64,000 nt of DNA. It comes from Escherichia coli. Its GTDB lineage: Bacteria; Pseudomonadota; Gammaproteobacteria; Enterobacterales; Enterobacteriaceae. Shown piece by piece: positions 2,173 through 3,191 of this stretch. The stretch is from the NCBI RefSeq assembly GCF_003018255.1, contig NZ_CP027440.1; one strand, given 5' to 3'. The notes under the pieces are model-generated. The model was given only the letters and a program-made list of their open reading frames with translations, was not told where the DNA came from and ran no database searches. The stretch's first letter is position 1. Every line of letters begins with the position of its first letter. Made by a program: the position numbers and the translations under genes.

Positions 2173-3191
2173 TCACCACCTCCACGTCCGATACGCGGAT
2201 CAATCCACAAATAGAGCAAATCCACCACCAGGTTCACCAGCACATAAGCAAACGAAACCACGACGGCAAAGCCCATCACTGCCGGGAAGTCGAGCGCCTG
2301 TATTGATGTTACTACCCATGCACCCATTCCGGGCCAGGCAAAAACGGTTTCGGTGAGCACTGCGCCATACAACAAATCGCCCAGCGCCAGTCCCAATACG
2401 GTAATCGAGGGGATCAACGCATTGGGTAGCGCATAACATAAAACGATATACCAGCCGGGCAAGCCGCTGGCCCGGGCGGTACGAATGTAATCTTCACTCA
2501 ATTGTTCCAGCATAGCTGAGCGGATCTGGCGAGCGACAATTCCCAGGTGAACGAACGCCAGCGTTAATGCCGGTAAGATGAGATGTTGCAGCGCATTGAA
2601 GAAGACTTCACCGTTGCCTTCAAGCAGCGCATCGAGCAGATAAAAGCCGGTAACGTGCGTTGGTGGATCCAGCCAGTCATCAAGCCTTCCGCCGCCGGGA
2701 AGAATTTGCAGATGACCATAAAACAGCACAATGACGCCCAGCCCAAGCCAGAACGCAGGTGTGGAGATTCCGGTAATGGCCATTATTCGCACCAGATGAT
2801 CCAGCCAGCGATTTCGCCAGACTGCAGAGAGTATGCCCAGCGGGATGCCAATCAGAAGTGCCAGCAGCAGGGCACAAAAAGCCAGTTCCAGCGTCGCCGG
2901 GAAAAATATGCGCAACTCTTCCAGCACCGGACGCCCGGTACGAATGGATGTTCCCAGGTCACCCTAAAACAGGTCGCTGACGTAGCGGTAAAACTGTACG
3001 TACAGTGGCTGGTCCAGTCCCAGTTGCTGGCGAATATTATCCACGATAGCATCGCTGGCGCGGTCACCCGCCAGTAACCGCGCCGGATCGCCGGGGATCA
3101 GGTGCGAGATAATAAACGTTATCACACAGACGCCCGCCACCACGAGCACCAGCCCCCAGCAGCGTTGGCGTAAAATACTCCAGAAGGTCAC
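2169..3191 (-). pseudogene. ddpB: ABC transporter permease DdpB interrupted by one in-frame amber codon (TAG at 2966-2964); two ORF pieces of 75 and 252 codons share a frame
   Basis: Reverse-strand reading ...YVSDLF-TAG-GDLGTSIRTGRPVLEELRIFF... is continuous in one frame; 75+1+12+252 codons = 340, my recalled DdpB length. Confidence 0.8.

Follow-up and report, generated by a model that had tools for sequence, protein, structure and literature searches.

The ddpB gene in the stretch of Escherichia coli DNA analysed here (64 kb, hereafter the window) is interrupted by a single in-frame amber codon at codon 76, and we are confident that the codon arose by a real and recent loss-of-function mutation that is specific to one lineage. 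Sequence data from many independent runs contain the identical base, the closest relatives carry a sense codon at the same place, and the TAG allele is fixed in a small natural E. coli clone.

A premature amber codon in ddpB and its ancestral state

On the minus strand the window reads ...GAC CTG TTT TAG GGT GAC CTG GGA..., which places the in-frame TAG at window positions 2966..2964 (2964..2966, minus strand). We translated the full ddpB frame (2169..3191, minus strand) from its GTG start at 3191 to the TGA at 2171..2169 and obtained 341 codons with a single internal stop, at codon 76, and the TGA at the end. The peptide across the stop is ...YVSDLF*GDLGTSIRTGRPVLEELRIFF..., identical to the text YVSDLF-TAG-GDLGTSIRTGRPVLEELRIFF given in a preliminary description of this DNA. 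That description had also stated that the two ddpB pieces lie in one frame and together make up the length of DdpB, and on both points our reading agrees with it: the open reading frames listed at 2964..3191 (75 aa) and 2169..2927 (252 aa) are in-frame with each other, and 75 + 1 + 264 codons equal the 340 codons of the intact DdpB of relatives, whose gene measures 1023 nt. The locus is the ddpB orthologue, with 99.9% identity over 1023 nt and with ddpA and ddpC flanking it in the same order. As its 340-codon frame is broken by an in-frame TAG at codon 76, the gene in the window is a pseudogene allele of ddpB, which codes for the DppB-like permease subunit of a D,D-dipeptide ABC importer.

We ran a megablast search of the 1023 nt of ddpB against 5426 complete RefSeq E. 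coli genomes. Annotated ddpB was matched in 4276 of them at a coverage of at least 80%, and 4278 showed any match. The best four matches, all with 99.9% identity, came from strains 200164, E04, JNE23-011, and JNE112863, and all four of these nearest complete genomes carry CAG at codon 76, while the other alleles carry CAT or CAG. In 200164 and JNE23-011, ddpB is annotated as intact (1023 nt, WP_000145091.1) within the gene order dosP, ddpX, ddpA, ddpB, ddpC, ddpD, ddpF, osmC. Compared base by base with these two strains, the 1023 nt of the window gene show one difference, at position 2966, where the coding strand has T instead of C (A on the plus strand) and the codon is consequently TAG instead of CAG. 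The ancestral codon, which the preliminary description had proposed to identify by comparison with other ddpB sequences, is thus CAG (Gln), and the lesion, Q76amber, arose by a C-to-T transition in the coding strand. Both pieces align without gaps to the single ddpB of 200164 and of JNE23-011, and this gapless 1023-nt alignment with its one mismatch bears out the earlier claim of a point nonsense change, as opposed to a frameshift or deletion, together with the collinearity on which that claim depended. A 57-mer centred on the TAG codon had an exact match in none of the 5426 complete RefSeq E. coli genomes, and 644 complete genomes contain a match with one mismatch.

Codon 76 of ddpB is naturally polymorphic between His (CAT) and Gln (CAG): among the sampled full-length ddpB alleles, 11 of 13 have His and the remaining 2 have Gln. 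The DppB paralogue has His at the aligned position, which in that protein precedes the conserved GDLG motif. Judging from these alignments, residue 76 of DdpB is not critical and the position tolerates variation, and a codon history of CAY to CAG to TAG appears likely.

These observations bear on the possibility that ddpB is still functional through an amber suppressor tRNA (a supE-like glnV restoring Gln76) or through natural read-through of UAG. The ancestral residue is Gln, the position accepts His as well (in the 11 alleles and in DppB), the ddpB frame downstream of the TAG is still fully open, and near-cognate read-through of UAG in E. coli is documented to insert Gln, Tyr or Trp (PMC4333366). 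An open downstream frame is, however, expected anyway after a recent mutation. No tRNA gene was found within the 64-kb window, and nothing points to a suppressor. Moreover, natural isolates seldom carry suppressors, and UAG is read through at a basal rate well below 1-2% when RF1 is present, both of which count against the possibility, and we consider it quite unlikely. The stop in ddpB has the context UAG-G; the +4 base modulates termination, with +4U lowering read-through (PMC5289835). Rare read-through of ddpB would often rebuild the ancestral protein, though presumably at a very low level. The more specific proposal that the clone has a natural amber suppressor or Gln-inserting read-through, with ddpB Q76amber conditionally expressed and the ancestral protein regenerated exactly, strikes us as decidedly improbable. 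If it were true, this lineage would provide an instance from nature of amber suppression that is tolerated or regulated.

Occurrence of the TAG allele in independent sequence data

The preliminary description had allowed for a sequencing error at this base. We reject this explanation because the same base, with the split open reading frames, is found in many independent runs whose contigs carry other SNPs. Position 2966 is T in at least nine of the Logan contigs that we retrieved (L005-L009, L014, L016, L017, and L019), which come from different runs. T together with the 75-aa/252-aa pair of open reading frames was found in runs SRR23828367 (contig present in 14 samples), SRR24257665 (10 samples) and SRR1951444 (at least 20 samples), and likewise in SRR36161698, SRR13450396, ERR433369, SRR7947255, and SRR30944597; several of the contigs are therefore common to 10 to at least 20 samples, and their linked SNPs differ. 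The contigs that carry TAG are 0-2 SNPs from the window and 0-4 SNPs from one another over 2-12 kb. As they differ by other SNPs, they represent separate isolates of one young clone. In an exact look-up, the 75-aa product was found on 36 contigs, one of them a 4.89-Mb NCBI contig with both fragments.

A contig was taken as a carrier only after a base-by-base check, and the raw numbers of 75-aa and 252-aa proteins should not be equated with allele counts. De Bruijn contigs from mixed samples break after the "CA" of codon 76 and yield partial 75-aa proteins identical to the truncated DdpB product, so database counts of the 75-aa protein overstate the TAG allele. Five candidate carriers (L010-L013 and L018) were rejected in this way, being wild-type contigs that end right after "CA", which they do because the third base of codon 76 is polymorphic. 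Six further contigs (L021, L022, L024-L026, and L028) were rejected as ddpB lesions, since the 252-aa open reading frame there reflects runs of N, that is, scaffold gaps.

We also compared the window with the corresponding region of JNE23-011. The two are closely related without being copies of each other, and among the complete RefSeq E. coli genomes none is an exact match to the window. The first 35 kb contain 66 substitutions and two intergenic indels, and no coding indel; most of the substitutions fall into two recombination-like clusters (in pqqL and in ydeO-ydeP), leaving about six isolated SNPs, the TAG among them. The remaining 29 kb show a like pattern, and no gene other than ddpB has gained a premature stop. 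The lack of coding indels relative to JNE23-011 over 64 kb indicates that the quality of the assembly is high. An error of sequencing or assembly confined to one genome, with ddpB really intact, would agree with a difference of one base from the nearest complete genomes and with the absence of the allele from all 5426 of them. It is at odds, however, with a window free of coding indels against its relative and, above all, with the fact that dozens of mutually independent runs and assemblies, differing in their linked SNPs, show that base and those split frames. We consider its probability practically negligible.

The comparison with JNE23-011 yielded several observations apart from ddpB. Clustered and mostly synonymous differences occupy 14859-15576, 24430-26173, 49779-50978, 54221-56723, and 56761-60250, a pattern typical of imported recombination tracts, to judge from the sequences; outside the clusters the two sequences are almost identical. 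Of dosC (8020-8227) only the last ~165 nt are left, with ~1.26 kb missing in comparison with the haplotype that has an intact dosC of 460 aa (L018, 3538-4796). The downstream dosP is intact, and the same remnant is annotated in JNE23-011; the dosCP pair of this lineage is therefore without its diguanylate cyclase and probably without its promoter-proximal part. The dif site at 35107-35134 (minus strand) is unoccupied in the window, whereas in JNE23-011 (NZ_AP045067.1, 2210001-2245000; L004) the dif flanks enclose four tandem copies of a ~8.3-kb filamentous prophage, with genes for a zot-like protein, a secretin, a replication protein and an ssDNA-binding protein. In the region of yneK and ptrR (56748-56758 and 55705-56586), the window lacks ~1.0 kb that comprises most of yneK in JNE23-011, and the stop of ptrR is changed from TAG to TAC, which gives 293 aa instead of 291. 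Finally, at 62715 the window has one extra A where the mgtT of JNE23-011 is annotated as frameshifted (L015, 28751-28854), so the window may carry an intact mgtT.

Predicted effect on the permease and the state of the operon

With codon 76 restored to Gln, DdpB is an ABC permease of the BPD_transp_1 family (DppB/OppB type), with Pfam matches to PF19300 at residues 7-78 (52.6 bits) and to PF00528 (BPD_transp_1) at residues 115-335 (152.6 bits), and its best match among solved structures is the DppB of 8z1v (E=3e-83, residues 12-334). The 75-codon N-terminal product (2967..3191, minus strand) retains only part of the BPD_transp_1_N match (PF19300), which lies upstream of BPD_transp_1, and the whole of BPD_transp_1 is missing. 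A product that ends at residue 75 without any of BPD_transp_1 should therefore be unable to form the translocation pathway. This is in line with the earlier expectation that the permease is probably inactivated, given that the stop lies upstream of the entire BPD_transp_1 domain. Since DdpABCDF has two permease subunits, of which DdpB is one, we infer that import of D-Ala-D-Ala by this system is very probably lost, while the DdpX dipeptidase and the other subunits would still be encodable.

Nevertheless, a 252-codon open reading frame that starts at the GTG of codon 89 (2169..2927, minus strand) holds BPD_transp_1 and is picked by gene callers. Reinitiation at this codon could in principle supply a second fragment that assembles with the 75-aa one into a working permease: the GTG is just 36 nt downstream of the stop, and termination-reinitiation across short distances is known in bacteria. 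The GTG, however, has no convincing Shine-Dalgarno sequence, with a duplex energy of -2.6 kcal/mol compared with -10.6 for ddpC and -10.3 for ddpD. Indeed, none of the in-frame restart codons of ddpB after the TAG is preceded by a credible Shine-Dalgarno sequence, which makes a functional C-terminal fragment of DdpB unlikely. Residues 76-88 would moreover be absent from such a permease, a split of this kind is without precedent in the family, and the arrangement is not conserved beyond one young clone. We regard a split permease as extremely unlikely and loss of DdpB as the expected outcome of the mutation.

The other ddp genes look intact according to the preliminary description, which is correct for four of them. 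The first gene of the operon, ddpX (4757..5338), which codes for the D-Ala-D-Ala dipeptidase (Peptidase_M15), the periplasmic binding protein gene ddpA (3193..4743), the second permease gene ddpC (1276..2172) and the ATPase gene ddpD (293..1279), all on the minus strand, are the same as the annotated intact genes of JNE23-011 save for one synonymous SNP in ddpD. The other ATPase gene, ddpF (1..300, minus strand), starts at 300 and is cut by the left edge of the window, so only its first 100 codons, which are open, can be read and the statement cannot be derived from the window itself; it does hold for the lineage, as the full 308 aa of DdpF are encoded in contigs L005-L009 and L016-L017. Among the sampled carriers of TAG we found no second lesion in ddpB-ddpF, and the absence of such lesions provides no positive indication that constraint is relaxed. 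The unchanged state of the rest of the operon fits a recent event. Three SNPs were seen among TAG isolates relative to the window, at 5293, 4178, and 7988 (in L005, L006, and L016), which change ddpX (D16N), ddpA (A189E) and dosP (L3P), respectively. All three are non-synonymous, and a sample of three is too small for a test of relaxed selection.

The mutation could also affect expression of the genes downstream. The TAA stop of ddpA lies one base before the GTG of ddpB, an arrangement that fits translational coupling, and the start of ddpC overlaps the stop of ddpB (ATGA). As ddpC and ddpD each have a strong Shine-Dalgarno site (GGAGGTGGTGA in the case of ddpC), loss of the ddpB/ddpC coupling should not abolish their translation, and translational polarity on the downstream ddp genes is probably small. 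Over the 795 nucleotides left untranslated, Rho-dependent polarity in transcription may occur. A crude scan of the C/G ratio revealed no marked C-rich, G-poor tract in the 795 nt downstream of the stop, with a maximum of 1.41.

Dispensability of the ddp operon and comparison with known systems

DdpX was reportedly recognised by Lessard and colleagues in 1998 as a homologue of VanX that is induced during stationary phase. Through the ddp genes, D-Ala-D-Ala dipeptides are scavenged as an alternative source of nitrogen, and in cultures replete with ammonium the effect of deleting ddpX or ddpA was negligible (10.1101/262139). Natural strains can do without the operon: 1148 of the 5426 complete genomes (21%) gave no megablast match to ddpB, ddpF is frameshifted in strain 200164, and independent frameshifts of ddpB occur in L020 (4-bp deletion), L023 (1 bp, at codon 76) and L027 (1-bp deletion). 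The case for recurrent, independent inactivation of ddpB itself is weaker than it first appeared, as these three are the only real frameshifts and two of them come from metagenome assemblies. In L023 (GCA_022327255.1) the deleted base belongs to codon 76, and ddpA is split as well.

A single C-to-T change replaced CAG (Gln) by TAG at codon 76 of ddpB in the E. coli strain from which this small clone descends. Translation stops after 75 residues, leaving a partial BPD_transp_1_N and no BPD_transp_1, and ddpB is now a pseudogene at an early stage of decay, in an operon that is non-essential and induced by starvation. Decay that was neutral, or nearly so, and became fixed as the clone descended from that strain explains this most simply. 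Selection in the clone for inactivation of Ddp import, or for a Rho-polar drop in ddpCDF expression, might be suggested by the fixation of the allele over many isolates and by the repeated loss of, or damage to, ddp in E. coli. Hitch-hiking in a clonal expansion explains the fixation equally well, however; recurrent lesions are few, most of the apparent ones being scaffold N-gaps; and no strongly C-rich, G-poor tract (maximum C/G 1.41) follows the stop. We therefore give an adaptive loss only a slight chance and favour neutral decay.

In practice, annotation should show a single ddpB pseudogene (Q76*) here and not two small genes, as gene callers now split the locus into 75-aa and 252-aa products, and the TAG allele is a convenient clonal marker of this small lineage. 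Those who use strains of the clone in experiments should assume that there is no import of D-Ala-D-Ala via Ddp. Beyond annotation the finding is of little importance, as one more case of decay in the accessory ddp operon. Literature searches on ddpB returned mostly unrelated acronyms, and those on strains JNE23-011 and JNE112863 returned nothing.

The window has the same gene order and junctions as the ddpXABCDF operon of E. coli (formerly yddS-yddO; D-Ala-D-Ala dipeptidase and D,D-dipeptide ABC importer), and its ddp region differs from that of JNE23-011 by two SNPs in 7.2 kb. Where the intact DdpB (WP_000145091.1) has its codon 76 as CAG or CAT, the window has TAG, and only 75 of the 340 residues are encoded. 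DdpB shares full-length homology and the same two Pfam domains with DppB of the E. coli DppBCDF transporter (PDB 8z1v) and with permeases of the OppB/DppB type; DppBCDF is a paralogous system with another substrate, and its DppB has His at the aligned position. What we found is a nonsense pseudogene of an ordinary, already known kind, restricted to one lineage and located in an accessory operon. Like the usual nonsense pseudogenes of E. coli and Shigella, and like the other ddp lesions, it reflects a single-event hit on a non-essential gene in one clone; it differs from those other ddp lesions in being a clean amber codon, and not an indel or IS insertion, in an operon that is otherwise untouched.
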